NCBI GenBank assembly: GCA_973895155.1
Contig: OZ316893.1
Location: 11,165,660-11,229,659 of the forward strand
Source: Marsupella aquatica
Lineage: Eukaryota; Plantae; Marchantiophyta
Length of the DNA stretch: 64,000 bases
Direction: 5' to 3'
The notes beneath the pieces were generated by a model that had not been told where the DNA came from, did not search any database, and worked only from the letters and a program-made list of their open reading frames with translations. Within the stretch, counting starts at the first letter, position 1. Each line of letters starts with the position of its first letter. The translations under genes and the position numbers were made by a program. This document shows, in pieces, positions 32,951 through 58,431 of this stretch.

Positions 32951-33967
32951 GGCTGCAAAACCACATTGAGGGTCAGAACGCAACACAAAACCATTTCATA
33001 ACCAGGTGCGAGAAAATTCAACTTTACAATGCTTGATTGGACCACGGCTATGCTTACTTAATAAACATTCAGGCATAGCCCAGCAGGCCCTGGATGGATG
33101 ACAGTGAGTAAAAGGATGCGTCCTCCATCAAGACATGCAAGACATACTAGACTCCGTGAACCTAAGCATAGAGGAGCTACCAGAACCTCTCAAGAATTTC
33201 CACAAACATTCTTAACACGGTTTCGGACCGACCAAGAAGCGTGACACACTTCTCGTTTAGCCCGATTCCATTTTTTTTCTAAGGCAATGCAATCTCCGAT
33301 AAAACTGCCGAAAAATTAAAAAACACCAGTTTCCTACATTGCATCGCCGCAGGAATGCAGGGAGCTATACGTGCATTGGATTTTACATTCAGTCTGTGAA
33401 AAATTCCGAAGTGCAAGTAACTTGGTCCGAACCACGTAATCAAGGTCGACCACGCACTAACCCGGGTTAAGGGGGAAAGTAACCGTGGTTAATGGGGAAA
33501 GTAACCATGGTTAGAGCATCCCCTATATAAAGAGGAGCGGGCTGCCCGGCCATAAAAAGTTTATTTTTGCCGGAGCAAACAACACCTCACTTAGAGTGAA
33601 TACTAAACTCCTATCGAGTCTTACATTCCTCCCAAAAGACTTGACTCTTTCTCCAGATAACCCGATAAATTTATCGAAACTACCATTCCAGTTCGAGTAT
33701 CATCTATGTAAGGTTGACTTGTCATTTGGTGTCAATGTCCTGATCCAAGTAGACTGCGATAAATTTATCGCATTCTGCATTCCTATGTTGCATTCCTTTG
33801 ATCCAGTAAAACAAGAGGAGTCCACATTCATTCCATAGACTATATTCAAGGTCCGATAAATTTATTGGAGTCTTCATTCCTTTGATGGATAAAAGATTAA
33901 TTGAGACTCCGATAAATTGATCAGAGTTTCCATTACTGTGATTGACTGAAGATTGTTTGAGACTCCG

Positions 33968-34264
33968 CTCGGGGGTCTCACTATATGGATGCCTCCCCAT
34001 CCCCTGCGACGTTTTTAGGCCTCGGACCCCCTAAAATGTAAGAAAACAATATTATTTTTCAACCCCTATAAAGTTGTAATATTCTTGGAATATTCCAAAA
34101 ATTTGGTTAGAAAGACCCTAATGTTCTTATAAGTCTCAAAATTAAATTTAAAAGACCCTATTGTTCTTCTACACAAATTCTTAACTCTTCCCTTTAAACC
34201 AATAAAACAACCCTATCCTTCGTCACACGTGATGTGCCATTTTTGTGGAAGTGAAACCCCCGAG
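33968..34264 (+). mobile_element. MITE of the CTCGGGG family (297 bp)
   Basis: TIRs ctcgggggtctcact ... agtgaaacccccgag and a perfect 8-bp TSD AGACTCCG (33960-33967 / 34265-34272). Confidence 0.93.
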
Positions 34265-35099
34265 AGACTCCGATAAATTTATCGGAGTTTCCATTCCTGT
34301 GATTGATTGAAGATTGTTTGAGACTCCGATAAATTAATCGGAGTATCCCTTCCTTTAAAGGATTCAGGGCTTAGGCGGGGGCTTAGGTGTGTGAGGGAGT
34401 CATGTCTTCAAGGTGAATGCGAAGTGCGATAAACTTATCACACCCTCCTGTGAGACTCATTTTCCTCTATTTTGTTTGGAGACTCATCTTCCTCTGTGAT
34501 GTCGCAATGCTGCCGGGTTTAGGAGGCACAACGTAAGGTTGATTGCACTCGGTGGATCACGGGTACAGTGACCAATGGCTATCTTAATTCAAAATCGTGT
34601 CAAGCGTGGCCGGTTGTACAAGAAACTTGTGCAACGTAAAGTTCTCCCCATTGGTGTAGGAGCGTTGTGGATGGGTGGTACTCATCCCGGAGATAGGTAG
34701 AATCCTCTCCGGATTGAGTTTTGCGGAATGAATGGTGCAGAAGTTCCAATTTGTTTGAGGTTGATGTTAACGGCGTGTCTCCATTCTTTGGAGTTTTCTT
34801 GTAACTATTGTTGTTGTCGTCTTGACAACAAGTACGTACCATAAATTGGCATACTTATGTTGTTATATTTGGAATGAGGACCCTTGGGTCAACCTTTCAC
34901 GATGAGTGTTGCAACCTTCACATTGAGGCGCGTTTTGTAAGGACATATTCAATTAAACAAGTCTTACCCATGTGCAGCAAATATAATACGGTCTGAGTCC
35001 TAATCTTTAAACTGTCATGTAGGGTTGGTACTGTGGATATCTATGGTTACACCTGGTGATTGAAGGTACTTTTATTGGTGGTTTTGGTATCTCTACTTA

Positions 35100-38000
35100 A
35101 TGGCTGTGTCGGAGAACCTAATCGTTGCTAAGATGGCATCTGTGTTAGCCCACGAGCGTAGGAAATATACTCGAGGAAAAGTGGCCGGTGTGGAATGCGG
35201 AAGTTTGTTGAATGGACTTCGTAATGAACTCGTTGAATCTCACATTTGGCCTCTCTTGGCATTGTCTTGCACACACGATGAACACCTTGGCCATGACCTA
35301 AAACTTTTACCCGAAGAACGACTGGCTCGAATGAGAACAATCATTTGTCTTGGAGCCACCTCAAAGTGTCATGCGATTGACATGGGTCTTAACACCAAAA
35401 ACGTCACTATGGGTGCCAAAATCATCTCCTTGTACCTGAAGATCACAAAGGGATGTTGTGAAGGCCGGTAAACACCAATTTCTGCCCTTAACACCAGACC
35501 ATCATAACAAGACTCCGTCACACATCACCCAAGCTCAATCCCTAAGAACCAAGGTTGGGAATCAGATCCTGTGCTCATGATAGTTCTGGTGAGAAGGGGT
35601 CTTCATATAAGGCCCGTACACATAGGGCCTAGCGCTATGGTGCGCATATGTCTATATGTATGCTTACTGTCATAGGTATATTTCTATTCCGCCACCGGAA
35701 TGTACCCATAAACCAGTGACTCCTGATTGATTCCCGGCTTAGGGACTTCTAAGCCATTGCCCCACCACTATGCCATTCCACTCTCAGCAATCAGAGCTGT
35801 GACAGGCCTCACCCAACCCACTTCAATGCACCCGGTACACCTCTCAGTGGCGCTACTAGTCCCATCATACACTCAGATTGCCTCACACACACACACATCC
35901 ATGAGAGAAATGAGGCCTGAGAGGAAAACTCAATTAGATTCAAAGATGTGCACAACAATTCATTGAGAACACTTGATCCGAACAATAGGCCCGAAGGCTG
36001 TCTCCTCCAGATTGGGACGTGCTTGCCCTGCAAGCCTCGTGCTTGCCATGCAAGCTCAATCCTGAACCTGAGCCCGGCTCAATCTAGATTGCGACGGTAG
36101 ATTGGACTCAAACCGATCCCGTACTTGCCTTGCAAACTCAATCCTGAACTCAACCTCCTTCACTGCACCTCATTCTGGGTGGCACATACAGATCTCACAC
36201 CTCCAATCATTTCCGAATGTCAAGTAAGTTACGCATGCACAGTTGACTCGACTTCAAAGCTGGTACCAGGCCTAATGGCGATCTATCCCAGACTGCAATG
36301 AGGCCCGGCCTCACGCTTGCCCTGCAAGCTCCGCTCTGGCCATAGATCCCTTAGTGCTCTCCACCAGACAAAGGCCGGGACTCCCCATGGATCACATAGC
36401 CTTGCCAGACTGAACTGTAAATGCTCCTCCTGCTGCCCCTCAATCAGTGTCTCAGCCTCCCTAATGTGCTCACCGCAAATTGAATTGAAATCTTCCCCAC
36501 AGTTTACAATCACCAACACAGCACCTATCACCAAGGCTCTGTATCGGGGGAAAAGAACCCAGTTGTGTTGCCCACTACAAAGAGCCACAATCCAACTTGT
36601 AAACCTGGCCAACTATTGTTGTGAAGCGTGGTTGATTACTCCCTGAGTAATAGCACAACCAAGCACTCCCCAACACATAGCTTCCAGGCCCAGCCTTCCT
36701 TGCACAAAGCTCCTCCCTGCTGCTCAGTCTACGTGAGATCACACAACTGAAGTCCCCCCTGCCTCTACCGGGGGGCTGCTCTATATACTCTCATATTGAG
36801 CCCAAATGGGTGGATACTACGCTGCTGGAGCCCCATCCCAGCCCTAACAGAGCCGCCACTATCTCTAACTATTGAACCCTAACTTGCAACTTTATTTCTA
36901 TCTCAAATTGGCTATGTACTTCGGATTTGGCCCTCCTCCATGGTTTTTGCGAGCCTGCGCCTCCTCTCCTGATTTCTCTATTCAACCATTTGTTGCGTGG
37001 ATAGTAGCGTTAGAAGCGGCTTGAGCTCCTCTTTCCAACGAGGTCAATTATAGCCGATTTGGTCAAATACACAGAAAGTTATGCCCCCGTAACCGAGAGG
37101 GGGTACTCACTGCTATGTTAACCCGAGTTACATAGCTAACCCGAGTTCGGCTAACCTGGCTATCCTATCTAACCCGAGTAGAGCTAACCCGTGGTCTCGG
37201 GTTAGGCCGCTATCCGCTAACCTAGGCTAAGCTAAGCCTGAACCTGAACTTACCTATGCTAACCCAAGCCCGAGTTTAGGCTAACCCGAGTTCAGTCTAA
37301 CCCGGGATCAATCTAATCGGAACCAGGGTTAAGCCTAAGCTGAAGCCGTGCTAACATGAGCTAAGCTGAAGCCGTGCTTACATAAGCTAAGCCGTGGCCG
37401 AGCTTAGGTTAACCCGAAACCGAAGCCGAATCCGCTCATTCCGGCCACAAGTTAACCCGTCACACTAATTAGGCCGTATCTTTCTTAATACACCTCCGTT
37501 TCCCGAGTGTTTTATATCGATTTTACTCGCCTTGACCAGATCTTTTCAATGCTCTTTACAGATCCGAATTTGGTGACGTATTGAAAGAGATATGGTCGCC
37601 AACCACCCGCAACATAGCTTTTATTTCCCTAACATTCTAAGACTAGACTATGAACCACTAACCCAAATAACAAAATGAAGCTACACACCCAAGACATTCA
37701 GATTTTATCATGAGACATACCACACAGCTTCAGCTATGGAGACTCGCTTCCTCCTCTCTTCCCCAGTTTCTCCTTTGTGGCCTTGACAGTGACTACCTCA
37801 ACTGTGTCTGCCTTGGTTGTGCAGTCTTCAAGCTGAAATGCCTTTATCCCTACTCTTAACGCCATGATTGCCCTTATTCTTGCCAGCTTGCTAATTGTTA
37901 TGCAATATCAATAGCTACTCCTTGCATACAGCAACCTACTTACTCAGATTATAGAATAAGGACCATGTCAGCAGCGTCACACAAAGAAATGGAACCATCT

Positions 38001-38157
38001 TGTTGTTGGTACACAATTTTGGGCTTTAATAAAATACGCAGTCCGTGAGATTAATGACATAAACAAAATGCTCGCAAGCATTCTAATGCAGACCTTCTCT
38101 CAAACCTACATATTCCTAGGGTCTTCCGAGAGAAAACTCATTTCCTCCCTCCCATAG
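35100..38157 (+). pseudogene. F-box-like gene split by a solo LTR
   Basis: Removing 35367-37986 joins ...LLNGLRNELVESHIWPLL...RMRTIICLGATSK to KWNHLVVGTQFW in frame. This gives an F-box-like L-x-x-L-P-x-E/D-L...SKxWxxLV pattern. Stop at 38155-38157. Confidence 0.6.
35367..37981. mobile_element. solo LTR, ~2.6 kb
   Basis: TGTCATGC...GCGTCACA ends with a 5-bp TSD CAAAG (35362-35366 / 37982-37986). Its removal restores the flanking reading frame. It contains an array of ctaacccgag-like repeats (~37110-37460). Confidence 0.85.
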
Positions 38158-38600
38158 ATATGCTTGGGTGCTTTTTGTATGACCGATTAGATGCGTTTCT
38201 TAGAGTTTGGGTGAATCTTGGAGAAAGCGGGAAGCGGAAAATTCTTGCATGGCATGGACGAGTCTGGGTGGATGAGGCATTGCTGCAAATATCCGATAAA
38301 TTTATCGCACTCCTCATTCCTCTGGTCTATTTAGTAGTCAATTGATTTTAGTGGGTGGTTTTCTCGAGAAGAGCTTGTAAAGAAACATTTTGAATGTAAA
38401 TGACACTGAATTGCTTTGCCTGACTTCGGGTTGTGTGGTCCAGAGTGTAGTTTTTTGCGCATCTAAGGACGATTAGCTGACAAGTGCATGGCTTCACAAC
38501 CCGTTATACAAGGTACTATAAAGTTGGAATAAACTTGTAGAATTGGAATGAGTTAATGTTCTCCAAAATTTGTTCCTGATTTCCATTCGCTGATCAGGCC

Positions 38601-39074
38601 ATGCTCGAGCGACGCATTTTTGTACCCTTTGTCGATCCTCCGGAATGGGGGAATGGCGCTATGATGGACCAACTAAGGAGGCTGGATGAATCACTAATTT
38701 TAAAGATTTGCAGGCTGGTCACAAAACCGTTTTATAATAACGCATTTCACTTCTACGTAGACCAGGTAGAGGGAGAAATCTATATCCGGTGGGATAGATA
38801 TGTTGCATTTTCTAGAAGAGTTATCCTGCTCTTTCTGAAAACCGATGCAGTAAAACGGTTTATACTGCACTGTTGTCATGTTGTCAAGGGCAATCCTGCA
38901 TATGAACCAGAATTCTATGCCCACAATAGACGTAGAGCATTCGATGAGATTCATGATGTGATTGACCAGCTGGACAATCCTCTTGCCACCAAGTTTTTGA
39001 TTGACACTGGTGGGAAACTATATTTGTACATGACTATCACGGGACTTGTCAACTCCCCCACGGCCTTTATGTGA
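38601..39074 (+). CDS. hypothetical 157-aa cargo protein of the outer element
   Basis: ATG-initiated ORF with globular, protein-like composition and an AATAAA downstream (~39186). No family recognised. Confidence 0.5.
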   Translation: MLERRIFVPFVDPPEWGNGAMMDQLRRLDESLILKICRLVTKPFYNNAFHFYVDQVEGEIYIRWDRYVAFSRRVILLFLKTDAVKRFILHCCHVVKGNPAYEPEFYAHNRRRAFDEIHDVIDQLDNPLATKFLIDTGGKLYLYMTITGLVNSPTAFM

Positions 39075-39642
39075 GTTGTTTAAGTTAGTCTATGTATGTT
39101 GCCTATGGACGAACATCCTTGCCAATGGTGAGATGTGTCAATGTTGCTCAAATGCTTGTTGTGACATTCCGTCACGCTGATATTCAATAAAAGTAGTGAA
39201 CCTTGAGACTGGTGATGTTGATTTCCATTGGCTGCATGGGCTTATGATCATAGCGTCACTCATATTCCCCGATGGCCCAAGAAGCTAATCTCTCAATATG
39301 TTGTAGCGCGGTTTGATCTTGAACAAGAAGCCTTAAGGGATGAGTCCAAAGCCTTATTTCTCTTTTCAAAATCTTCATGATATTAAAAAGTGTATACCAA
39401 AAAACCACCAAAAAATGGTATGTATTTTTCAAACTAGACTCAAGAGAATTTTACCACCAAAATCTAAGCATATCTTATATGATATTCTCACAATTGTATA
39501 AACCTTGAAATATGCACTTTATAAAAGTAATCAAAATCAAACTCATCGATCAGAGTTTAAGTCAAACTCAAAGTTTTACAAAATATAACCCAACTTAAGC
39601 CCAAGTGGTTTCAAATGCTACGAGTCCCTCTATTTATCTAGT

Positions 39643-42600
39643 CTAATCCAAAGGGACCGCTTCCCCTTCCTCGGTTCCGGAAGTCCCTGTCGTCAATTCT
39701 GGAACAATTGTGGCATCGTCAACCACGCTATCCTCTCCGGCCTGAGGAATGTCTTCCTCACTCTCCTCATCCATCTCCCCCTGTCCGTCTTCCTCTTCAA
39801 TGTTATCTGCAAGGTTAAGAATCCTCCCTTTCAACACACTGCTCTGTCGCTCGTCAATCTCAATGGCAACGCAATGTCTCCCCATGGCCAAGGAGGAGGT
39901 TGTCCCAGTCCCTGATCCTGAACAAATATCCAAAACCCAGTCTCCAACCTGACTAAAATGACTCACTTCCCAATCTAACAATGCACGTGGTTTCTGATAA
40001 ACATTCACTGCCTTGTTATCCCCGTTGTGTTTCAGCTTCTTAGTCACAGCTGCGCATACAACCACATTGTTCCTTGATTCATTTGTGTCAAAATTGAAGT
40101 GCTCCAATGACCGTTTACCATCCTGGCTGTGAAAGCCAATTGTAAAGCACTCAAAGTTGCTGTTCAATCTTGGTCCACCAGCATTCTTCACATTATCCTT
40201 AACCCTGAAAAGTCACAAAAAGTCAAGGAGTTATTTAAACTGAGAAACATGGTTCATGAAATCATGAATAACTAATAGTTGTTTTTTTCAAAAACAAATA
40301 TTTCTTACCACACACAATTCTGGAACCCTCCATTACACTCCGCTTTCAAAACGGTCTTGATGGCCTCATATTGGTCAAGGCTATGGTGAATGATAATACG
40401 CCACAACTTTGCAGTAGTAGCCACCTTGAACGATTGGACCATTTTTGTGATCTCCTCAGTTCCCCATCCAATAGTGTCTTCATGAAGACATCCAGGCAAT
40501 GCAAACCCGTAGGGAATATCCACTAAAGCTAATGTGTAAGCCCGACCCGGAACCACCTCATGTAATCGCTGAGCATCATGAGTAAAAATATCATAGTGCA
40601 CATCACCAAACTCTGGATGCTCAAACGAATTTGGATGAAGTTCCCCCTCTTGGGTTTGCCGACTAGAAGTCTTCATGGATAGCCAATTTTGGGCTTGCAC
40701 AATATGCGCATTGAATTTGTCCGGGAATGACTTGAGATCTTTGCCTTCCTCATCTCCCTTCTTTTTCCGGGAGGTGGTATCTTTCTACAAAAAGGAACTG
40801 TAGAATTAGAAACAAGGATTCCAAATATTAAATGAATTCAAACAATCATTCGAAGAAAGGTGACAGAATCTTACCCATGTCTGGAAAACAGGTACGAAAT
40901 TCTTAAGCACATTGTCTGTGCAATTCTCAGGGTACTTGGTTTTACAACCTGACCAACTCTCCTTGTGTAGACACGTGAGGAAGGCCTTCTGCACCTGCAT
41001 CTGAAATTTGTGTCGAGTAAATTCGTGACCCATTTCCTGTAAAGAGAGTTCTTTAGTAAGAACTCTCTGTAACACTGGGCAAATCATATCAGGATCTTTC
41101 AAGGCCTGCATGTGTCTCCACTCTGTTAATTTCATGTCCTCATAAGGCAATTTGGCATCTCCAGACTTAGAGACTTTCTTCTTGCCTTTGTCTCCTTTTT
41201 GACCTTTGATCTCACACATCTCCCACTTGTCACAAATCTGCCTCACAAATGACCACACAGGATCTTGTCGGAATGCCAACTGAAATAGGTTATCATTGGC
41301 ATTAAGAACCTCAGCATCCTTTCGTACACCCCAATCCTTGAGATTGATTTCAGTAGCACACTCTTTCTTGAAATCCTGGTTGGACGACAATCCATTCTCA
41401 ACAAATCTCATGTGAATATAATTTACTCTCTGGATTGTCGTCATCTGTTGTCGAAATTCAGAATCAATATTGTGACTCCACGCCAGGTTTCTTGCCTCTT
41501 GCACACTCAATCCCGCAAATATCCAAGATTGCACTCTCCGAAATGCCTTGTTGTTAGGGAACTGAAGAGCAAGGTCTGCTTTGGCACAGGCTGAATGGTT
41601 GCCCCCAATCACATAATAATGGTAATCAGCTTTCCTTGAAAAATCAAAGTCTTGCCTAGTAGCACACTCCTTCGGATCCACCAAGAGGACAAACGGAGCT
41701 GCAAGTGGACTGGCACCTACAGTCTTCATCCGCAAGGTCAATTGGGTCAAGAAATATGGTTGGATGTGTCGGACCTGGTAAATGGGCAAGCCCACAGCCT
41801 TCTCTCTCACTGGAGGGTAAAGTTGACCAATGTCAACGGTCACGGTCTCCTCTTGAACACCACATCTTCCCAGAATCTCCTCCTGGTACAATACCCGTGC
41901 ATCCATTGACATTGATTGAGCCTTTTGCTCCAAATGCGTTGGAATTTTCTCCAAAGTCTTCTTTTTTGACTTTGTAGCACTGGGCTCGGTAGGCTCAGGA
42001 GTCATAGCAGGTCGCTTCTTTGAAGAAATGTGAGTTCCAGTCGTACCTTGTGCCGACCCACCAGTCAAAGCCGTTCCCTGGGATGATTTGCCAACTTGAG
42101 ATCCCCCTCCAGATGCTGCTGCTTCCCGGGAGGTTGTAGGCGCTACCACGGTCAAAATATCATTGGGTAAAATGCTAGGCCTCGATCCAGAAGGAACACC
42201 GGAAGCCCCAGATTTGGGTGGACGACTTACTCCCTTCTCTGCCGACCTTTTCCGGAGAATCTCTCTTGATTTTCGGATTGCACTCTTTAAAGTGCTAGCG
42301 TGAAATTCAAACACAAAACCGGAAATCTTTCCCGCAACGTCGTGGTAACGTTCCTCACTCGAAAGAGACTTGACAGTCTCAATGATGCTATCGATGTCCT
42401 CATCGAGATAGCAGGTGGCAGCCGTTCCAGAAAACCTCTCCACATCCACGACAATCAAAGTTGATGTTTCCTTCGTTGTGATCAACATGTTCACAACTTC
42501 GTCGCCCCGTCAAAATACATCGATGCGGCCGTAATTTACCCACCCTAATGCCCCCGATGGAAGCCCCTCAAATACACACAGCATTAGGAAGGGCTTCTTC

Positions 42601-42704
42601 CATGTTTCCGTCCCTAAGGAAATCGTCCAGGATGAGTTGTGGAAGTCCGTCAAAGGATGGCGCGAAAAGATGTCATCCACCAGCTCTTCCTGCGACATTG
42701 TCAT
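39643..42704 (-). CDS. ParB/Srx-like domain fused to a beta-class N6-adenine/N4-cytosine DNA methyltransferase, 3 exons, one upstream in-frame stop
   Basis: Exons 42704-40875, 40784-40309 and 40204-39643 splice in frame (GT-AG), about 955 codons. There is a single TGA at 42512-42510, and a downstream ATG at 42488 leaves both domains intact. ParB-like part: QVRHI...APFVLLVD...YYVIGGNHSACAK. MTase part, with catalytic motif IV before SAM motif I (beta order): YTLALVDIPYG...CVWVK...YQKPRALL...GDWVLDICSGSGTG...MGRHCVAIEID. Confidence 0.88.
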
Positions 42705-45700
42705 GTTTTTGCCTGATCTTCAAACCTGAGAACATACCACAAAATCAGTCCACTTCAACCCCAACCTGCGAGACAAAGTGCCACAGAACCAAGGAATGTG
42801 CCAACAAATGGCTACTAAAACCGTGTCCTTACGGATCTAACAACGCTCTCGGCCACCCCAGGACTCCTATCATGAATTCATGAAGGGAGTCTCCCTCTCG
42901 CTCCGACCTTCATGAATTCATGAAGGGAGTCTCCTCTCTCTTTGCTTGTACACCTCGGTGATGCAGAAGGGTATTTAAAATAGGGTTCGGAGGGGGGTGA
43001 CATGAAGAAATCACCCAGGGCCTAAATTACTACCTAAAACAGGGTCGAAATGAAGTGCGACCGCGACAACTCGCGACACGTCGCCGATGAGTGCTGAAAA
43101 TGGCACGAAATTGGACAGCGAGATTGTTTTTCACTCTTTTACAAAGGAAATCCAAATGACATTGAGTGAAAATGAATGGGCTGCCCCGTGTTCCTTGGTT
43201 ATACATACTAATCACGGATCAGGCGCGACTTAGTAAAATTAACCCAGAATCATGATAAATCAATGTTTTTGGGCCAATTATTCATGAATATTTCGGGGTA
43301 TTAACGGGAAAAAGCTTGCAAATTTCATGAATATTTGATATTTTTGAAGTTAAAAAGTTCCAACAATCCGTGAAAAACTATAAATAGGCTCGTTTATTCA
43401 TGACTCTTGGTCATTATTTTGAGAAGATTTGTTAGATTTTACTGATTTTCTGAGTTTCTTGTCAATTTGCACTAGTTTTTCCAATGGCGGCGTGTTACGA
43501 ATCAGATGATTATTCAGATGGAGTTTCTGATGATGTTTCATTGCCGGATGGCCCCGGCACAGTGGTTGGCCCAGATATCCCTGGAATAACTACTGTTTTA
43601 GATATGCCACCCCCCACCCCTATGAGCAAGTTAAAACATAGTCCTTTACGACTTGCAATTAGTGGGAAGAAATCATTGGTCGGTGGTAAAGAGAGGTCAG
43701 GGAGCTCCTCTGACTCCTTGGAGAGTATTGGTCCCCCTGGACGTCAAGTTGTATCTCCTTTGTCACCAACAAAGGACAAATTGGGGAGTAATCTGGAAGG
43801 TTCAATGCCTATTTGGATGTCTGGGAAACGGTCTCATGAATTCATGAAGACTGGATTTGGAAAGACGAAGAAGGCACTAAGTGGGGAAAATGACAGAGAT
43901 TTTTGCAGTCTCCAAAGTGTTCAGCGGCTGAAGCAAATGCCAAAAAGTAAAACCTTTGGTAAGCCAACGTCGGAAACATTTCACAGGGGGATGAGGGAAG
44001 AAACTAGACGACCAGTGTTATTGAAAAGTATTCCAGAAAAGAATTCTAATGTGCGTTCCTCAGTTTTACCTAGGAGTCATGGTGTTGGGGCAAGGAGCGG
44101 ATCAAGTCACGGAAACTCAAACAGGGAAACCAACCTGGTGGAGAGGGACCCTAGGAAAATATTGAAAGGGTCCCTACACGGTAATGGAGGGATTTCTGAA
44201 ATACGCCCAGGTATTCCAAGGGTGCATAGAGTGAAGGAAAAGCCTCCATCTCCGAAGGCTGCAGGTCTGGAATCTAGGCATGTTCAGAAGCAAATGTTGG
44301 TGACCATTTCATCATCGAATGAAAGCGAGTCTTCGGAGAGTGGGGAGGATGATGATGTTCTGGTGGCATCTAGTCGTTACAAACGTACGAGCAACGCCAC
44401 TTTGTGTGAAACAAAGTTGAAAGAGGAGGATATCAAGAAAACAAATAGTAAGTACTGTTGTCAGAGTCATTGTCTCCTAAGTCTATCTCCAAAAGAAATT
44501 CGTGAGGCGCGTTCTAAATTTTTGAGGCAGAAATCTCAGGATCGATCTTTATCTTTGCAGTGGCTTATAAAGCGAGACGGAAATGAAGGAGGGAGGCAGA
44601 CTATATCTTACACGTTTGGTCAAAAGAGTATTTGTCGGAAAGCTTTCAAGCTTATATTTTGCGTTGGCAATCATAGATTAAATAGAATTTTGAAATTAGA
44701 CAACCAAGACTTAGGATATTCTAAACCAGTTGGACGCCCTCCATCTGTTAAAAGATTAGTCTTGGTCAGTTGGCTTAGGTCGTTTTTTGAGACACGCGTG
44801 GAAACATTGCCAAATAAAGAAGTTTCACATTTACCGGATAATTATTCAAAGCTGGAGGTATGGAAGATCTACGACTCCAACTATGCCAAGATTGATGAAT
44901 CTTCAAAAATATCCTATCGACAATTCTTGAAAGTTTGGGTTCAAGAATTTGGTCATGTGAAGATTCCTCCAGTCAATCGATTCAGTGCTTGCGCGGATTG
45001 CGAGGAGTTCAAATCAATTCGGGACAAAGCTGTCTCGGAGACCGAAAAGAGTAAGTTACTTACAAGTTTGACAAGTTTTTGTTTCAAGAATATGGCTTAA
45101 CACATGATTTCTAATTTTTTTTGAAGAAACTAACAAGTTGTTTTTCCAGGGCGAGGGGAAATTATGTTACAAAAACATAGAGACCAACAATCCAAAGAAC
45201 GTGAGAAACTCGCGAAGCATCGTAAGAAATGTTTTTCAAATTCTGATAAATATTTGGGAGTTGTCATTGATGGGATGGATCAGAAGAAGACAAGGTTGCC
45301 TCATTGGCCGCGGCCCCCAAAATCGGTGGACGAAACATGTTTGATCCAAATGCACGTTGTCGGATGCCTGGTTTTCAATGGTGCACTATTTTCAAGAGTG
45401 TTTCTTAATTATCCTGTATTGCATAATGATGGAAACTTGATAGTCACAATCCTGCAAAGGGTGTTTCACGAATGGGAAGAAAAGCCTGGTGGCTTGCCGC
45501 CTGTTCTCTATCTTCAACTTGATAATACCAGTAGAGAAAATAAAAATAATTTACTCTTTGCCTATCTTCATATGTTGATTCGAAGAAAGGTTTTTCGGAA
45601 AATCAAACTAGGATTCTTGTTGGTTGGACACACACATGACCAAATAGATCAAATGTTCAGTCGATTTTCTAAACGACTAGCAAGGTTTAAGGCATTCACA

Positions 45701-46985
45701 TACGAAAGCCTATGTGATATTATTTGTGAATCATATCAACCCCAACCAAATATCACTCTTTTAAAGGAAACATATGATTTCCGTCAATATGCCTTCTCAG
45801 ATCCACCTTTAGTCATTGAAAGGATTCGAAATGTTACCTTCCACCACCAGTACAAATTTGCATTTGACAAGTTGGAAAATCAAGTTCCAACCCAATGGGG
45901 GAAGAAGTTTTCCACGGACTCAACTTGGAAACCTGACGGAGGCGTGAAATTTTTGAGGGAAGAGGAGCCAGAAAAGGTGATGGGTTGTGCTCCCGGATTA
46001 CCCCTTTTCAAAAAGGGGGATAAGAACGTTACAAGGACTCAACCAAATATGTCTAGTTCTTCAAGAATGACTTTGAAGGAGATGGATGATTCGTTAAATG
46101 AGATTCAAAAGGGAATACTTGCAGTTGAAACTTTATTCTCAGAAGAGGAAGTGAACTGGTGGAGAATGTTTTTTGAAGAGCAACGGGAATTGAATAAATC
46201 TTTGCTCCTTGATCAAAGACCATTGATTTTCCCTTTTCAATGGCCACGCTCCCAAAGGGAGATTGCTGTTGCTGCTGAAGTTCCCAGAGTCCTTGTCAAT
46301 GAAGAGGAAATTGAAGAGAGAGTATACGGACCTACCAGAGATATATACGTGGGTCCTTATCGGAATCAAGGAAAGATAGATGTAGAGAAGGAGAATATGG
46401 AAGGAGACTTTTCGGATCTTGAAGTCAACACTTATATTTCTGTTGCTGGAGAAGAATCGGAAACATTTTGGGTGGCCAAGGTGGAAAGAATTGACCAGCG
46501 CGACGAGTTCAACATTCCAAAAATGATTTATGTTTTATGGCATGCTACAAAAACCGGGTCAGATCCTTGGAAAGCCAAGTACTTACCAGAAGTCTTAAAC
46601 TACGAAAAGAAGAAAAGTGGTCGTGGGAAAGGAACTTTGAAACCAATATGGTTTCACCAAGAGCTTGATTTATCTTCAACGACTGTTTTTGCTTACAACT
46701 TCATGTTGACAAAATCTGATACATTGTACAAAAAGACAGTAGATCGAATCAAAATCCGATTGACTGAATTTTTGGCAGAAGAGAAAGAGCAAGAACAAGA
46801 GAATGGATCAACTAGAACCCCGCTAGGAGATAAATCTAGGGATATTTCGTTTCAAGAATTGAGGACTTCTGGATCTGAGTAATGAAAAGTAGTTATTGTT
46901 TGTGACATTACCATTGAAAAACATGGATAACTTGAAAATTTACAAATTTTCAAAATGCCTTTACCACTTATTCATGAATTCATGG
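40254..46985. repeat. dispersed 14-bp palindrome TCATGAATTCATGA (inner element)
   Basis: Perfect at 42870, 42910 (within a ~40-bp tandem duplication in the divergent promoter) and 43834. One-mismatch copies at 40254 (MTase intron 2) and 46972 (downstream of the transposase). Half sites near 39375, 43250, 43282, 43325 and 43398. Confidence 0.8.
43484..46882 (+). CDS. Sola1/DUF7869-like DDD transposase, 2 exons, apparently intact (~1099 aa)
   Basis: Exons 43484-45050 and 45150-46882 join in frame (..EK-R-RGEIMLQKH..). Catalytic-type motifs VIDGMDQ, LQLDNTSRENKN and GFLLVGHTHDQIDQMFSRF. Cys clusters CCQSHC, ICRKAF and CADCEE, a disordered N-terminus and a beta-rich C-terminal module. Confidence 0.88.
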
Positions 46986-47741
46986 TTAAAGTTTCTTGAG
47001 AAATTTGTAGTTTAATATTATGTTAGTGGGTTGTGTTTCAATTCAATTAGATGGTGTCATTTCTATTCTCTTTGTCTTCTTTTCACAATAATGTGTATCA
47101 GGTTAAGTTATAGTAATTTATTTTCTGGTTTTTAAATGACAATGGCTTTTGGAGGTGATTTAGTTGTTGTTTCAAAAGACACCTCGTGTAATTGTGAGAC
47201 CATTCTAGATAATAGTGTTGTATTTGAGATCATTTATTGGTGGAATGTAACTTCAGATGAATTTGGTCATTTTTAGGTGTCAAAACATAGCTAGTTTATG
47301 TCATATTTTGTTCGCTCCATATTTTTGCTCTAAAATAGGTGCTAATTTTTGCACTTTTTTGGACTTTTTCGTTGTTTTTCTGATTTTTTGGCTAGAGTTC
47401 CTAAAGTATGGGCTTGTTACTCATCATTTAAGGCTTCTTGTTCTTGGATGGGATGATTGATTAGGCACATTATCACATGTACACTCGACCGTCAATTTAA
47501 AAAAGGCTCACATTTTGTTTGGACTACTTTTGCGATAATTTTATCGGTGTTGGTATAATTATATTGAAACTTGAATGACCCCGTCTTGAGTTGAGCAATA
47601 AAATTATCGTCATCTGCATTGCGGGTCTCTTGTCCTTGTGTGTTATGAGATGTTGTGTTACATTTCCACATGTGCTATGAGATTGGCAACGATAATTTTA
47701 TTGCTCTTTGCATTGGAATATGTTTATTTGCAGACTTTGCC

Positions 47742-50700
47742 ATGGCTGCTAGTGGAAAGAGTGGATCTGCCGAGGCTGAAACTCTCATGACAAGCCTCAC
47801 CAATGCAATTTGGATGTGTGAAGACATTTGTGAAGAGGTCAAGTGTATCAGGAAGCCATGGTACTTCCGTGACACCAGATTAGAGTCCACGGGTTTCCAA
47901 GATTGTAATACCCCAATCCTTTGGGTCCAGTTGCAAAAATCTGCAAAGGTTAATGTTTTGTATGGCCCTGTGATTGCTGTGGCCATCTGTGAGTTCATGG
48001 TTGGCCACGGGGAGGGAAAAGTGTTGACAAAGGGCCTTAGTTTCTTGACAATGTGTGGACGCAAGGGTTTCACATCTCTCATTGTTACTCTTGACAACTT
48101 TGATGAGAAATCTGTTGACAGTTATCCAGAAGATCTCCTTGTCGCAGAAGTCTGGACAGCAAGAGAGATGAATGTTATGGGTTTGGCTTGGGTGTGCCAA
48201 TATGTCCAAGATTGTGATGCTATCATGCTACCAAGGGTGAACTCAGAGTACAAGAGACTTGTGGGTGAAGAGTTCAAACCTGTCCGGAAAATTGTTTTCA
48301 AGAAACCTGGTTCAAGCGGGAGTGGTGGTTCTTATGTCAATAAAATGTCGGGCCGTAAAGAACCATTACAAACCTCTCCACCTATTGATGTGGACGAACC
48401 CGCAACTTCTGGTCGGGTTTCGGGAAGTGGAAGAGGGAAAGGGAGAGGTAGCAGGAGGGGAGATGCCGCGGGAACTTTTGACGGTGGGAAGAGGAGCCAG
48501 GAAACTGGCGGTAGTGGAAGGGGCCGGGGGCAATTGTCGAGGACGTGCATCAGAAGCACCGTCCGTTAATCCAAGCAAAAATAAAGGATCCGAGGGATCC
48601 GGGCCATCTGGTTCTAGACTTAGCACAAAGAGGAAGAGAACTGGCTGGAGTGAAACGGTCGCTCTAGAAGTAATTAGAGCTCCAACTAATACATTAATTT
48701 CTCCAGTTCCAGTCGCAGTTCCTATGATGCCACTGGTAAGTATTACATTGTTCAGTTTTGTTGATCAAATGTGGATTCCGATAAAAATCTCGCTGTTTCT
48801 TTCGGCCTCATTCACAATTGGAGGACCCAAAAGGAACGTCACACTCAAAAGTGATCATAGTTTATTATGCTTTAGGATATCATTTGTAGGGTGTAATGAG
48901 ATGATATAGAAAATTTGATGTACTATACTTAATAAACATCCTGTAGGTTCATAACATTCATTAAATTATCTAGCATTTGAGACTTTGAAGATTTCCTTAT
49001 ATGTCCTTCAAAGATTGATAAAAGGACTTGTCACGCAACGAGTCACATCATTTCAGGACTCAAAAGGACTCTAAAAATTGCATTTTAGACAATGAAATTT
49101 TATCAAAGCATGCATACTAATAGAATAATCTTATATTTCAAAACTCAAATACTGACACACACTAAACCTTTATGTATAGGACAAAAATAATCATTAATTT
49201 TGGCTTATTTAGGGCCAACAATAATAGGATCCCTTAAAACAGTTGAAAACTTGATTTATCTACATGGTGAGGTAGGTTACACCATGTAAAATCGTCTTGT
49301 GAAAAAATTAGAGTTAAATGTCTTTTTCACGTTACAAAAGTCATTATTCACTAAAAAAACATGTTTTTGAGTCCTGAAAATGGTTCCTGCGAGGTACACC
49401 CAATTGTGAATGAGGCCTTTCCTTAATTGAATTTGCAATGTTTTTTGTGGACAAATGCGGATTCTGATAAAATTCTCGCTGTTTCTTTCCTTAATTGAAT
49501 TCACAACATTTTTTGTAAGCTAATTAGGAGGAGGAGACAACTCTTTCAATGTATGAGACTGATGCCATCAAAGCAGAGCTCAGTCTATTGATGCAACAAA
49601 GGGTGCAAAGGACAACTAAAGTATCCTTCTGCATGTCAACAATCTGATATTTGATGAGGAGGGGGATATGTCAACTTTGATTAGACCAGTGGATAGATTG
49701 CATGTGGAGAATATCAAGATACTTCTCATGAAAAACCCCACGAACTTCAGTGCACCGTTCGTGCTGTGTGTGGATCCGGAGGATTGTCCGAAGATTGGGA
49801 CATCCTGAAGTCAAGGGTATGGAAGTATAGAATTATTGGAGGGAATCATGGTGCTCGGGCAAACTCCAACTTGTATAAAATGTATGGCAAGCACATTTAT
49901 GGTGAGCTGGAAGCTTGGGTTCACGCTGGGTTTACAAGATCCAAGGTCCAAAAGTTGGGCTTCCAGCATAATTATGACCAGGAGTACGTAATAGGAAGAA
50001 CATGACTCATATTGACCAAGTTCGTGCTTGTCACAATATTTATCTTGAAATGGGTGTGGGCTCGAATAAAGATGTTCGCAAAGCATGTTGTGAAGAATGC
50101 ATGATGGATTACACGCCAGGCGTTCGTGACTCCATGGCCAAACATGACCCAGCTTTCCAAATTGCTTTCCAAACAGGTGAAATCAGGGATCTTCAGGAGA
50201 AAATTTTCCAGATGTGGGAGAAGGGTATTGTCTTAGGACAACCCAAAAAAATTGTGGCAATGAAGAACGCAAAGGGAAAGGTAAAACCTTTGACAATAAG
50301 GGAGATTAAAATGAATAAACTTGCTAGGGACCTCAACTTAAATTCACTTTGAGGTCTACAAGGACTGTCAAATAAGGAGCATGTCAAGTGTCTCTTGAAT
50401 AGGGTTATCGGGAAGGTGATCACTTTGGATCAAATGCACAAGGAAGGTGAGAAGCTGAAAAAGCTTGCCAAGGTGAAGAAACTATTTTTCAGATATCTGG
50501 TCAGCCAGATTGGGCAACGTGCAGAGAAATGTTTCCCACTAAAACATATGTTTCGGTCCTTGGCATATGGGCTGAGAAATTGAGTGACGCGGTAAGCATT
50601 CCTCTGACCGCAAGATTTTTATCGGCTTTAGCATTCTATTTGTAGGTTTCTAAGCGATTGTATTTATCGGCGATAGGATTTCATTTGTAGATACGCATGA

Positions 50701-51913
50701 TGCTTATGGGCTATCGTGTTCCATCACAAGATTTTTATCGGGTTTTGGATTCATCTCACGTTATTCTAACTGGACATGTGTGTGACAATTGTACAGCTGA
50801 AGATTAGTTCAAAAAGGAAAAACAAAGTGGTTCCGGCTATCACTTATAATTCTGTGGGGGAGGTTATTGTTCTCTTGGCTGACATCCCATATGTGTTTAA
50901 GAATTTTGTGCTTGCTACAATCAATAGGCACAACCGGCTACAGTCCTTAGGCCAGGGCACAGCAGAAGCGTTGGAACAAACATGGAAAAATGCTGATGGG
51001 GATTCTTTCCCCTACTATCTCCATGTTGGGGATGTTTGAATTTTGTATTCTTTTGTTGAGCCAAGGGCTTACACCCTTGCGGTCGCGGATATTCCCTATG
51101 GTTTTCATGCTCTTGGTTCGGAGTGTGATGAAGTGTCCTTCGCAGAAAAGGACATTTTAGATATGGTGACAAGTTTTTCAAAGATGACAACCGCTAAGCA
51201 ACTGGTGCAGGTTTGTTGTGATCCATTCACTACAACAAACTCATATGGTGATGTCTGCACTTGAGAGTGTATGCAACTGTGGGGTCGAGGCTGGAATTTG
51301 GGAGAAGACTAACATTCATGAGCGTCCTGCTGGCGCTCGATTGGCGTGGGGTTTTGAGAACTGGTCGTTGGGTTTCTATAGCGAGGAAGGAATTTGGAAC
51401 ATGACACATGTACAATTTCCAACTGGATGAGTCTCGCGTCAATATCATCAAGGTTCCATGTGTAACCAAGAAGCCCGTTGATCCGTTGGGATGTGTTGTA
51501 AACCCGTACTGAAGCCTGTTGGTTTGGGGGCTTGGTTTGTTTCCCATTTCTCTGAGAAAGAGGATTGGGTTATAGATCTTTGTTGTGGAACCGGATCGAT
51601 GTTAGCTGCTACGCTCCTCAATTCTTGCCAGGGTTGATTTGTCGATAAGAGTTCTGCACAGATTGATTTTGTGAAATCTTGGATCATGACTCTGGAGTCA
51701 AACTGGAATTTATTTGCGGAATCCCAGATTGAAGGGCACGGTGTTGAAGGTCATGAGATTGAACCACCAATTGCAGGCCAGTTGGGTGTTCTCGGGACAT
51801 TGACTTACACAATTGAAGTCGTGAAGGTGACCAAAGAGGAACAAGAAGCAACTGAGGAAGAGCCTCCTAGAACACCAAATGAGGATGATCTCAACGACAT
51901 GTTATTAGATTAG
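47742..51913 (+). pseudogene. decayed paralog of the ParB-like/DNA-methyltransferase fusion (outer element)
   Basis: Frameshifted pieces colinear with the inner copy: LIRPVD...SAPFVLCVDP, YRIIGGNHGARA, QHNYDQEY..MTHIDQV, AYTLAVADIPYG, IWEK, KPVGLGAWFVSHFSEKEDWVIDLCCGTGS (~51512-51600), acidic tail. Probable first exon 47742-48735 and introns ~48736-49527 and ~50592-50797. Confidence 0.85.
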
Positions 51914-52074
51914 TTAGTCAAATGTGCTAGTTAGAATTTCTTGGCATCATAGTCATGCTGTTATCAATGAGGAATAGAGTTGTCGATAAATTTATCGGAT
52001 TGTGTATTCCATCAAGAAGAACCGTTGTAACCTTTGTTCATGCAATAAATTTATCGGACTTTGCATTCCATCAA

Positions 52075-52320
52075 GAAGCACTTTGCATTCCACGCTCTAG
52101 CTATTCCACTCCCTTCGCTCTAGCTATTCCACTCCCTTGTTTGTCACGGTGTTCTAGCTGTCAAATGGAGTTGTCAATAATCTTATCGGACTTTGCATTC
52201 CATGTTCTAGCTATTACACTCCCTTGTTTGTCACGGTGTTCTTGTTGTCACGGTGTTCTAGCTGGGGGAATGAAGTCATCGATAATCTTATCGGACTTTG
52301 CATTCCACGCTCTAGCTCCA
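52075..52320. repeat. tandem repeats between the convergent genes of the outer element
   Basis: gactttgcattcca, ctagctatt(c/a)cactccc, ttgtcacggtgttct and ataatcttatcgg each recur 2-4 times. Confidence 0.7.
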
Positions 52321-52485
52321 CAATAATTTCAAAAAAATTTATCATTATAGCTTTAAAGAACGACATAGTCCAAGATGTTCACGATTGCAACCATCCTCAT
52401 GGGAACGATAACTATTATAACTTAAACCTTTACACTAGCTTCTACTATCAACGACTACAATGTCCATCATTGCATTTTGAATGAT

Positions 52486-55400
52486 TCATCTTGTTTGTAC
52501 AAGGAGAGTACTATTTGCCAATAACGCAAAGTTATACGCATAAACTGTAGTTTTTGCTAGGGATAGTTCATCCTCCAGTACTTTATTAGACAAAGCCTCT
52601 TTCTCCGGATAATATTTGCCTTCAATTGTAGACTCCTCTTTGGAATCCATTGCATACCAAGTGATTTTAATTTGCTCGAGGATGTTGTTAATTTTTGTGA
52701 GAATCTCAATCACTTTTGCCATCTTCCTTTGGATCCTGATGGGCTGCTACACGTACATATCATTGCAAATTTAGTATTCACCTCTAGATCCTTGAAGTCT
52801 CCAATTTCCGTGACTTTTCTCCGACTTCCGGAATACATGACTGTCCTCACACCCGCTATTTTATCAACCAAGATAGGTTCCATTGTTGCTTCTGTAGGAT
52901 TGGTTGTAAGTTCTCTTTGTATGTTTACCTTGGGCCAACTCCAATCAAAACTCCATTGTGCAGGTTTCAGGTGGTGTTGAATCACTTCTTATAGTTTGTC
53001 AAAGAAACGACCCCACCATAGCCGATCTTTGTCATCAAAGTAATTGAATCCATCTTCAATTCCTCTTCGATATTTTTGAAGAGTCGAAAAATGATTTTGC
53101 GCCGCCCGCTCATCTTGTTCCTCAGTATCATTCTCTTGATCATCATTGTCTCTTGTCGCTCCCATGGCCGACTTCAATGTCATTTGTGGTGCGACCCACA
53201 TTCCAGATGAAGGAATGTACCGAACAAATTCCATGGGCTCCCCCCAATCTGTTGTCGTTGAAAGATGTTTGGCATGGAAGATAGACCAAGCACTTCCATC
53301 TTCGAGTACTCTCGTAATCCAAAATTTTTCTGAGCACTTATGCCGTGGAGAGTACGCAAAACCTGACCATCCATATCAAGGTTGTTATTTGCTTGATCCT
53401 TGTCAGACACAAATTTTTGAAATCAGCAACCTCATCGACAAAAAATATCTTTGCCGTAGGATTGTAGGATTCCTCTATGATTAATTGCGGAAAGAGTGTC
53501 AAACCAAAAAGCTTTTTGCTTGTTCAATTTTGAAGAAAACTTGCTAAACATTTGATCAATTTGGTCATGGGTGTGCCCCACCAACACAAAACCAACCTTT
53601 ATTTTCTGGAAAACACCTATCTCCACCAACATGTTCAAATATGCCATAAGATATTTATTCTTGTTTTCCTGAGCAGTGTTATCAAGCTGGAGATAAAGCA
53701 CTGGAGGGAGCGGACCTTCCCACGTATTCCGAATATGTTGAATAACGTGGATGGTCAGGTTGCTATCATTGCAAATATTTGAATAGTTCAAAAAAACATT
53801 TGAACTCAATTGTTTGTTGAAGATCAAACAACCCACTACGTGTATAGGGATGAAATACTTCTCATCCATATTCTTTGGACACCAAATGAAATGAGGTAAC
53901 TGTGTCTTCTTTTGATCCATTCCATCAATACAGATGCCCAAATATTTCTCCGAACTCTTGTAACATTTGCTCCGGTGCTTTGCTAACTTCTCCCTCTCCA
54001 TTGTTTGTGCCTTCCGATACTCGTTTAGCAATGTTGAGAATTTTCCTACAATAATAAAAATGTTTAGAACTTTTCTGGCCTGACAGCGATAAATTTATTG
54101 GGTTCAATATTCAAACACTTGATTTGATAACCGCAATGTTAAACCGTGACAACGATAAATTTATCGGGATAAGTATTCAAACTGTTCAAACGATATATTC
54201 ACACACATTACCAAAGAAGAAGCATGGGAATACTCAACCTGATAAAATTATTGGGAGTAACACATGGGTTTAGAAACTTACTCTTTTCTGCTTTGAGTGT
54301 TGCCTTATCACGTAGTGCTTTGAATTCAGTACACGGGGCGCAGGTGGAGAAATGACTCCTTTTGGGGATGCGCACGCGAGGAAACTCCTTGTTCCAAATG
54401 CGAACAAACCATGAATATGTCACGCCTTGTTCTTGGCGCATTAGAGTTTTAGAACTTAGGAAGGCATCAAAAACTTTAGTTTTTGTCCAATTGTCAGGTA
54501 AATGAAAGATATCCTTGTTGGGGAGACTCTCTACATTTGTGGTAAAAAATCATCGAGACACTGAACGAGACCAAGATGTGCGGACAATTTTTCTCTACAA
54601 AATGTATCGATCTGAATCCGAGAAAACATGTTCTTTGAGATTTTTTGGAGACGATTATTTCCTAAGGAAAATAATTTCTTAAAACCACTCCGACAAAAGG
54701 ATCTACCGCTAACTGAGTAACCACTTGCACCGGCATGCCCACCCTTCACACATCCTCTTAGAAGTACGTTCTTTTCTTGGTAAAATAGCCCATAGTAATA
54801 TGTGCGTTGTTTCATCACATCCTGCAGACCCAAATTCCTCAGACAAAAATTATCACAACAGGGATACTTATAAATTTCTTTCATTTTGTTTCTATTCAAT
54901 TTATCATTTATCACATTGTCTTTCGTAATAATTTGGTCTCTATCTTTTTTACTAGGTTCATTTGACTTCTCTATAGATTGACATCCGATGAGAACATCAA
55001 TTGACATTTTTGGGTCCTTCAGGTACCTCGCGAATAGATGCATCACTCTCTGCTGACCTACCATCCTCCACAGATCTCCTCGCCGGCGGAGGGGCATTGA
55101 AAAGGCAACTATAACTATTCTCTTCTATAGCTCCTTCTAAACATTCAGACATAACTTGTGCTATGATATCGGATTTTGTATCTCCTTCCTAATTTTTGTC
55201 CTCTTATCCACTCGACTCATCTAAAAACACAATTGGACTTCGTGGCTCTCTATACATAACCCGAACGCCACTAAGACCTCTCCTTGACACTTGGAGCTTG
55301 GAACCAATCACAGTCCGCCCTGGAGAACTTGGAGAACTATTCACACGTGCAGTCCCAACGACTCCGCGAGCTGCAGGAAAACTGAGCACTTGTTGACCAC

Positions 55401-55950
55401 AATTCCCACGGACCATTTGGGAAAGGGCCAAGTCTAGACTTTGCAATCCAATTCCCTCGCTTGCTTGCACATCTAGTCTAGGCAATGCAAAGACCGATCG
55501 CCGTATCGGTCTTTGTATCTGCCTCCTGATCCTCACCCGGAGACTGAAAGATCCGTCATTGAACGTGTGTTGAATGTGGTAACTTGAATGCCAAGTGCGA
55601 TACGCGTATTGGTCGCCGGATACCCTCTCCATAACCCGGGATGGATGGCCTAAAGCGACGTCTTGGACCTAAACCTGGGATTGAAAGTTTCTCATTTCTT
55701 GGCGATGGAACGCTCAAGAGACGACGCTTCTCAGGTTTACTAGGAGACACATAGTAAGAACTGGACTCAGGACCAAAACTTGCATCAGAATCTGAATCAG
55801 CGTCAAAGATTTCGAGCACTATCTACTGTGAGAGAGGTAGCTTTAAGTATGCGACTTGGCAAACACCGAGCGACAACATTAGGGGAGGATTCAACTAAAC
55901 TTGAAGGTGAATCTGTGTCTGATTGAGAGATGGCTATCCGAGACACTATG
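52486..55950 (-). pseudogene. decayed Sola1/DUF7869-like transposase (outer element)
   Basis: GICIDGMDQKKTQLP, LQLDNTAQENKN, GFVLVGHTHDQIDQMFSKF, CCDNFCL, FCRSGF, STCAPCTEFK and TTVYAYNF all match the inner transposase. The intron is at the same position (EK-a|gtaag near 54280). Many frameshifts and stops. Confidence 0.9.
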
Positions 55951-55973
55951 GGGCTTTGTATTCCTCCCTCAAT

Positions 55974-56165
55974 CTTGGGGGGATCACTGTATGTAGGGCT
56001 CTACATCACGTGCAGCGACGTTTTAGGGTCTGGACCCCCTAACTTTTAAGTGAAATTTGTTTTTCCCCACTCCCTTACTTTCTGAAAAGCGACCATTTTT
56101 TGAATTGTTTACCCCTATAAATTTTTATGGAAAGTTTTATGATGATTTAAAAAATGCCTATTAAG
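55974..56165 (+). mobile_element. terminus related to the CTCGGGG MITE family (truncated copy or end of a larger element)
   Basis: cttggggggatcact...gcgacgttttagggtctggaccccctaa...acccctataaa resembles the first ~190 bp of the MITE. No matching second TIR or TSD in the window. Confidence 0.55.
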
Positions 56166-58142: not shown

Positions 58143-58431
58143 CTCGGGGGTCTCACTATATGGATGTCTCCCCATCCCCTGTGACGTTTTTAGGCCTCAG
58201 ACCCCCTAAAATGTAAGAATTTTTTTGTTAAATTTTTCAACCCCTATAAAGTTGGAATATTCCAAAAATTTGGTTAGAAAGACCCTAATGTTCTTATAAG
58301 TCTCAAAATTGAATTTAAAGGACCCTATTGTTCTTCTACAAAAATTCTTAAGTCTTCCCTTCAAACCAATAAATTGACCCTATACTTCGTCGCACGTGAT
58401 GTGCCATTTTTGTGGAAGTGAAACCCCCGAG
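58143..58431 (+). mobile_element. MITE of the CTCGGGG family (289 bp)
   Basis: Same TIRs as 33968-34264 and a perfect 8-bp TSD TCCACAAT. Removing it restores FFRLWRLWLRYG in the P-like transposase. Confidence 0.93.

Follow-up and report, generated by a model that had tools for sequence, protein, structure and literature searches.

Two nested Sola-like transposons of Marsupella aquatica carry family-specific palindromes, putative binding sites of their own ParB-methylases

The window analysed here, a stretch of 64,000 nucleotides of the liverwort Marsupella aquatica (GCA_973895155.1, contig OZ316893.1, positions 11,165,660-11,229,659, forward strand), holds two Sola-like transposons, one nested in the other, and each carries a palindrome of its own. 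Each palindrome is a DNA word specific to its transposon family; the dyads are kept in introns, promoters and spacers and are multiplied by local duplication, and they are likely to be the binding sites, here called putative, of each element's own accessory protein, in which a ParB-like part is joined to an amino-methylase (ParB-methylase). The outer element is an older relative hosting the inner transposon. Features (positions in the window):

33231-55974: outer Sola-like transposon; left end approximate, right part cut off by another element.
33663-34440: outer cluster 1, seven palindromes, partly in a 56-bp tandem array, downstream of a TATA-like box (33521-33532).
38294-38307: perfect outer palindrome with a CATTCC box, upstream of the open reading frame (ORF) 38598-39074.
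47533-47703: outer cluster of three palindromes, shortly before the start codon of the outer ParB-methylase gene.
47742-51910, plus strand: outer ParB-methylase gene, decayed (stops, frameshifts); intron sites 48779, 49465, 50611, 50727.
51984-52293: outer cluster in the spacer of the convergent genes; four palindromes, three of them flanked on either side by the YATT box.
52430-55974, minus strand: outer transposase gene, decayed, 5'-truncated; intron sites 54087, 54153, 54240.
39322-47442: inner Sola-like transposon, 8121 bp; ~32-bp terminal inverted repeats (TIRs) 5'-AACAAGAAGCC, target duplication CTTG.
39643-42698, minus strand: inner ParB-methylase gene; inferred exons 42698-40875, 40784-40309, 40204-39643.
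40254-40267: inner palindrome in intron 2 of the inner ParB-methylase gene.
42870-42923: perfect inner palindromes at 42870 and 42910 (40 bp apart), upstream of the inner ParB-methylase start codon.
43484-46882, plus strand: inner transposase gene; DUF7869, probably Sola1-type; inferred intron 45051-45149.
46972-46985: inner palindrome located 3' of the transposase gene; distance to the right end, 470 bp.

The outer word, CGATAAATTTATCG, was counted over 33.6-54.3 kb, taken as the outer element, and near-copies were graded by their mismatches to it: six perfect copies (33663, 33757, 34271, 38294, 51984, 54153), five with one mismatch, five with two and four with three, i.e., 20 sites at ≤3 mismatches; two further copies with four mismatches (50611 and 50727) bring the near-copies to 16. 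The initial annotation, which had given six perfect and about 16 near-copies and had found none inside the inner element, is borne out on both counts, no copy at ≤3 mismatches lying there. It had also held that a word equally common outside the elements would speak against the idea; no excess was seen in the 41 kb of window flank, where one match at two mismatches and two at three stand beside chance expectations per 64 kb of 0.13-0.2 and 2.3-2.8, respectively, i.e., the level is as chance predicts. Coding spans, estimated by homology, make up ~68% of the outer element, yet 0 of the 22 outer sites are coding (8 clusters, p about 1e-4). Many outer near-copies differ by CG-to-TG/CA changes; position 54252 is C in all contigs compared from runs X1, X2 and X7, giving the consensus TTATCG. 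Sites gained and lost are seen at joints between copies (47546, 50668, 54182, 54253).

Beyond the outer core, ATT at offset +9 was found on the right of 16 and on the left of 8 of the 22 sites, with ≤2 at any other offset; the pattern core-N7-YATT gave 25 matches on both strands, 0.04 being expected. A second box, YATT, sits exactly 7 bp beyond the outer-clade core; because of this box and of the ATT enrichment the full outer site is longer than 14 bp, about (G)AATR-N7-CGATAA-WW-TTATCG-N7-YATT(C). Of the 14-bp palindromes first described the core is retained, and the outer site extends past it; the AATT centre said to be shared is not conserved, relatives carrying TA, AA or AT.

The inner word, TCATGAATTCATGA, was found in three perfect copies (42870, 42910, 43834) and two with one mismatch (40254, 46972), all in the inner element; the pattern YCATGAWWTCATGR gave five matches, all inner, vs 0 in 100 shuffles, in accord with the first description of a different palindrome replacing the outer word there. 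Written as YCATGA-WW-TCATGR, the inner-type word has five copies in the nested 8.1-kb element; further single TCATGA words stand at 43250-43403, and scanning of the flanks revealed no second box at inner-type sites. One of the five sites (43834, variable 5' part of the transposase gene) is coding; the placement in introns, promoters and 3' regions given in the initial annotation therefore holds for the outer sites and fails at this one. Avoidance of the termini, also claimed there, applies to the inner TIRs (the full sites closest to the ends lie 470 and 932 bp inside) and less well to outer cluster 1, ~0.4-1.2 kb from the probable left end. An internally deleted form of the inner element (43851-47383), abundant in X1 (depth 293), has its breakpoint 4 bp past palindrome 43834. 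A single perfect palindrome, TCATAAATTTATGA (31088-31101), a hybrid of both motifs, lies outside both elements in AT-rich DNA and may be chance or a relic.

Relatives were taken as 79 loci from a transposase scan of metagenome contigs, 14 of which hold the ParB part; both protein trees (ParB, transposase) are quick trees. Locus L001 is the sister of the inner element (support 99; transposase 64% identical) and has seven YCATGA-WW-TCATGR sites, which lie upstream of the accessory gene, in the variable 5' region of the transposase gene and in its intron, mostly at positions other than those of the inner element; the non-coding DNA of the two is barely alignable, with one 80-bp match outside the transposase region. 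Loci L039 and L050 fall in the clade of the outer element (support 91) and have four and six CGAGAC-NN-GTATCG sites, with the YATT box in 9/20 flanks vs a 2% background (two L050 site pairs are duplicates); no site was seen in L033 and L037, short contigs of the outer clade. The third group (46 loci) has CGATRC-N3-GYATCG arrays between genes, present in 20 of the 23 loci with ≥2 kb upstream, the other three looking rearranged; the half-site is CGATGC in clades A and B, CGATAC in clade C and mixed in L004. The motif-by-element table is almost diagonal, with five single off-diagonal matches; ApT occupies positions 3-4 in nearly all half-sites, and in the inner and outer elements, L001 and the third group sites stand immediately 5' of the ParB-methylase coding sequence. 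The word thus tracks the family tree in independent elements (L001, L039/L050, third group), as the family specificity initially proposed would have it; the further proposal, that motif and enzyme diverged together, stands as far as motif variants track the tree, the transposase tree being congruent and the reader not singled out.

Named relatives of the element proteins were found in Riccia, Ceratopteris, Adiantum and Chara; Riccia R1sor_010795 and R1sor_010796 are adjacent, matching the transposase/accessory design. A search of viral and prokaryotic contigs gave no relatives. A ParB-less control family was sought among the 79 loci and none was obtained: a low-GC clade (L006, L007, L041, L056, L065 and others) gave no ParB match, its contigs being short or broken upstream, and a divergent ORF of L065 resembles the accessory N-terminus by eye, without a phmmer match. 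Dyad matches in L006, L007, L056, L065, L072, L075 and L077 were discounted as plain tandem repeats, several of them coding. The low-GC clade also has a near-dyad TGATGT-WT-GCATCR just 3' of the transposase (L041:2849, L042:3042, L061:1628, L064:1788, L066:2022), with flanks so alike that shared descent may account for it. Seven TAATKC-NN-GMATTA dyads, mostly in an intron and with ApT at positions 3-4, were seen in a distant transposase locus (L070:197-1606) and left out of the evidence, as its contig shows no accessory gene. Upstream of another distant transposase, an ORF (L075:1312-2025) with an HTD motif, read by eye, is perhaps an accessory gene of 2-oxoglutarate (2OG)-oxygenase type.

One 6-2-6 dyad of the third group keeps a fixed distance from the right end, 105, 115 or 125 bp, i.e., a 10-bp ladder (examples among the L002-L051 ends: L011:3420, L005:11959, L021 about 7587). 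Clade A/C ends (26/26) have TGATAC-NN-GTATCA, 14 rows holding it at 114/115 bp and 12 at 125 bp, and clade B ends (5/6) TTACGC-AT-GCGTCA at 104/105 bp, rows including near-identical copies; the degraded site of L059 (clade B), read by eye, lies ~118 bp in, off the ladder. A 10-bp deletion differs in place between L051 and clade C and therefore arose at least twice. The phasing suggests that a protein bound to the dyad would contact the end complex in a set helical phase. At the ends within the window no phased dyad of either type was found; the TIRs of the window elements and their relatives are free of dyads, and the outer right end is missing (cut at 55974). The argument of the initial annotation that internal sites are not transposase sites is weakened, as relatives keep a 6-2-6 palindrome helically phased to the end.

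The accessory protein is predicted to fold like the N-terminal domain plus helix-turn-helix (HTH) of ParB/Noc. Sequence searches of PDB and Pfam left ParB undetected, and structure alone revealed the likeness: the central 338 residues were predicted at pLDDT 93 from a 99-sequence alignment (pLDDT 40 from the single sequence), the ParB/Noc fold being predicted for 41888-40875; Foldseek gave 13 matches at E≤0.001, all those displayed being ParB/Noc (Noc 7ng0, E 2e-5; ParB 6sdk; about 280 columns, spanning the N-terminal and HTH domains), and VIA gave Z 8-10 for the ParB/Noc match. In Atlas the ParB part gave a weak hint of DUF3723 and the N-terminal domain (about 170 residues) no match; HMMER found 231 homologs of the accessory exon, and a word-based search for longer homologs none; a SAM (sterile alpha) domain stands at the N-terminus of P0060, a homolog of the ParB part. 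At its C-terminus the accessory protein carries a beta-class amino-methylase (Pfam N6_N4_Mtase match in the inner gene) with motif IV before motif I, DIPY ... QKP ... DICSGSG in the inner protein; DIPYG was found in 10 loci and DPPY in six distant homologs, the second position here not being P. The DIPY, QKP and S-adenosylmethionine-binding motifs look intact and are retained across loci; because of DxPY and of the best matches, the adenine enzymes CcrM and RsrI, the mark would more likely be N6-methyladenine (6mA). Residue changes in the predicted recognition region are few and tied to the tree.

We consider it fairly probable that the family dyad is read by a ParB-HTH dimer, which holds the methylase in place there, shields and regulates the element that encodes it and assists at the end. 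The predicted ParB/Noc-type HTH would take one 6-bp half-site per monomer, and the bound dimer would tether the beta-class methylase, which may mark or shield its own element against host silencing; the ParB-methylase would also regulate its own promoter and probably aid transposase assembly on the end. Nested relatives would not cross-react because site and reader drift together. Four substitutions are enough to change which of two related palindromes ParB reads (PMC7383237), and VirB, a ParB-family anti-silencer, binds a parS-like palindrome (PMC10653881). Recognition of the cognate palindrome by the enzyme, as put forward in the initial annotation, is favoured by the predicted ParB/Noc fold with HTH and by the family-specific sites, and held back by the congruent transposase tree and the lack of a ParB-less control. 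A fuller version, possible and distinctly more tentative, is a eukaryotic parS/ParB system in which the protein would load at its private palindrome, place a mark of bacterial type at a constant distance (on the YATT box, one helical turn away, or on the half-site ApT) and shield the element, an end site would license the transposase, and the palindrome would act as a family password for expression and transposition.

Several points weigh against the ParB-methylase as reader. Both ParB-methylase genes are broken in these copies (the inner one by a single in-frame stop, 42510-42512), and the third-group loci are probably from one host; inner and outer half-sites are identical at 4/7 positions (9% by chance); the VIA root-mean-square deviation is high (5-13 Å) and the Z middling. 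The GERRxRA patch, its register set by eye on the kept G and A, reads GGNHSxxA, the arginine position being S in 39, T in 12, G in 6 and R in 1 of 74 homologs; because this arginine is absent, a cytidine triphosphate (CTP) clamp is doubtful, and the CTP-driven ParB-style spreading drawn on by analogy in the initial annotation loses weight. The clade A end half-site is mostly TGATAC vs CGATGC in the array, and the end-phased 6-2-6 dyad fits a transposase equally well. Co-variation with the motif does not tell the two candidate readers apart, as the ParB tree agrees with that of the transposase.

The dyads might instead be bound by the transposase or by a product split from it, the ParB-methylase being recruited second or acting elsewhere; we hold this to be rather unlikely, and it is the main, serious rival because the trees are congruent, a ParB-less control is lacking and a lone transposase can bind and de-silence cognate copies. 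CACTA TnpA binds cognate motifs; motif variants track the transposase tree equally well, and the end dyad, at its 104/105, 114/115 or 125 bp, has the 6-2-6 geometry of the window sites. The AtMu1 transposase needs no partner to bind its cognate motifs and relieve silencing, i.e., binding and hypomethylation are transposase-intrinsic, with peaks located at the TIRs (bioRxiv 2026.08.24.746577); here, the TIRs lack dyads, most sites lie kilobases inside, in introns and the accessory promoter, and a 14-15-bp dyad with an unread centre suits an element-encoded ParB-type HTH dimer.

Host transcription factors and inert repeats fit poorly. That the palindromes are inert by-products of tandem or inverted duplication, or hairpins, is improbable: several sites do lie within tandem units and third-group arms are complementary for 5-10 bp beyond the core, whereas arm complementarity past the core is weak in the window (0.09-0.59), the core persists at mostly non-orthologous positions between transposases 64% identical, coding DNA is avoided, the 10-bp end-distance steps arose more than once, and no Rfam match was found. 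Slightly less probable still are host factor sites (e.g., paired GATA-like words) gathered for expression; sites in promoters and introns, with numbers varying by local duplication between copies, would suit these, but two elements in one nucleus have mutually exclusive words, half-site and spacing change by clade, a fixed second box and end phasing would be unexpected, and the 41 kb flank is without excess.

Sola elements are marked by a 4-bp target duplication and TIRs. The inner element has CTTG on both sides, ~32-bp TIRs and an empty-site joint, contigs of public runs skipping 39316-47442; its bounds, first given as 39321-47443, are corrected to 39322-47442 with the 4-bp CTTG duplication. 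The DUF7869 transposase holds the blocks DGMDQ, LQLDN and GHTHDQIDQ, which may belong to the Sola1 group of DDD/E transposases. Each element has a transposase and an opposite-strand accessory gene of ParB-like plus N4/N6 methylase type, the two genes diverging in the inner element and converging in the outer one. Summed contig depth of the inner family is 480-620 vs 21 for single-copy DNA (run X1), with 1-6 differences per 0.6-1.8 kb, which suggests, as a rough estimate, a young family of roughly 25-30 near-identical copies in X1. At the outer left end a single-copy contig (depth 21) ends at 33270, after which depth climbs to hundreds; the sequence at 33231 starts ACCAAGAAGC, resembling the inner TIR AACAAGAAGC, and loose ends at 55974 continue in other outer copies. 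Insertions in the outer element:

33968-34264: hAT-like miniature inverted-repeat transposable element (MITE) in the palindrome array; 8-bp duplication AGACTCCG, from which the hAT label is inferred.
35367-37981: 2.6-kb TG...CA insertion; 5-bp duplication CAAAG; joint 35361-37982; likely a solo long terminal repeat.

Most other outer copies skip 33941-34379. The MITE family is very abundant, with CTCGGGG...CCCCGAG ends and 8-bp duplications (33968-34264, 58143-58431, 14647-14927, 58970-59226, 55975 onward; many flanks), and a MITE-related end (55975 onward) truncates the outer transposase. The 2.6-kb insertion holds no palindrome sites and splits the second of two ORF-like regions of the outer element (38598-39074; about 34560-35361), neither of which gave a significant family match. 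TAAC-N4-GTTA palindromes, which we assume may be host MYB-type sites, are repeated by the TATA-like box in the window (33458-33513) and in the third group (L012 about 1030-1090, L027 about 3490-3580, L032:775-1110); the 2.6-kb insertion has similar TAACCCG repeats (37100-37450). To the right of the outer transposon, several minus-strand ORFs without Pfam match (56760-61464) belong to a repetitive element poor in CpG. A laccase exon in the flank shares at most 50% identity with named laccases of seed plants.

Neither the combination of Sola1 with a ParB-methylase nor the idea of self-modification is new: in Sola1-1_Ec32 of Ectocarpus a Sola1 transposon has an opposite-strand ParB-like domain fused to an N4C/N6A methylase, and the authors propose that this protein binds and modifies its own element (PMC12477816). 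That element, compared by description, differs from the present ones in host (a brown alga) and size (21.5 kb); "palindrom" is absent from the main text, and in the accessible text no binding site, family specificity or nested pair was found (PMC12477816). The Plavaka element PAG3 (Bostrychia) likewise has a ParB-like accessory protein, with tandem inverted-repeat arrays beside the gene and self-binding proposed; it differs in its EnSpm/Plavaka transposase, in ParB fused to a 2OG-oxygenase and in a methylase on a separate gene, and the accessible account gave no family-by-family motif code (bioRxiv 2025.02.11.637652). VANDAL elements with VANC have family-specific short motifs in non-coding DNA (introns, intergenic, terminal), tandem duplication and a co-evolving element protein; the present elements share the family-specific motifs, their non-coding placement and tandem expansion, with a DUF7869 transposase and ParB-methylase in place of Mutator transposase and VANC. 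The VANDAL motifs are 8-9 bp and non-palindromic, VANC is not described as ParB-like or as a methylase in the accessible text, and binding and demethylation are proven for VANC and inferred for the elements here (PMC5735166).

Related palindromes read by related proteins with an N-terminal plus HTH fold (predicted here) are known from ParB-parS, Noc-NBS (Noc-binding sites), KorB and VirB (PMC7383237, PMC7333895, PMC10653881); VirB is an anti-silencer without ParA, and no ParA gene was seen in the present element either (PMC10653881). Unlike bacterial ParB, the accessory protein has the altered GERRxRA patch (PMC7333895), a fused C-terminal methylase and an extra N-terminal domain. MpDN4MT1 of Marchantia is likewise a prokaryote-type amino-methylase in a land plant, but its kind are host genes with TSPPY, giving N4-methylcytosine (4mC) at CG in sperm, whereas DIPY, ParB fusion and transposon carriage are found here (bioRxiv 2021.02.12.428880); other ParB-linked methylases were described by Iyer 2016 (PMC4738411). 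A literature search gave no report of a family-specific code, second box or phasing, supplements of the two algal papers, which may list such repeats, and subscription literature lying outside it.

Two 2025 papers, in their accessible parts, proposed that a transposon-borne ParB binds and modifies its own element and left the site unnamed; here, concrete candidate cognate pairs are given from at least five families, two orthogonal ones being nested in one genome, by which the published guess becomes a direct test. If the ParB-methylase is the reader, self-recognition by transposons, as seen in VANDAL, would have a second and independent case, made of bacterial components. The elements might then also account for 6mA or 4mC at specific sites in land plants, and their enzymes would be a naturally occurring series of methylases targeted by sequence.

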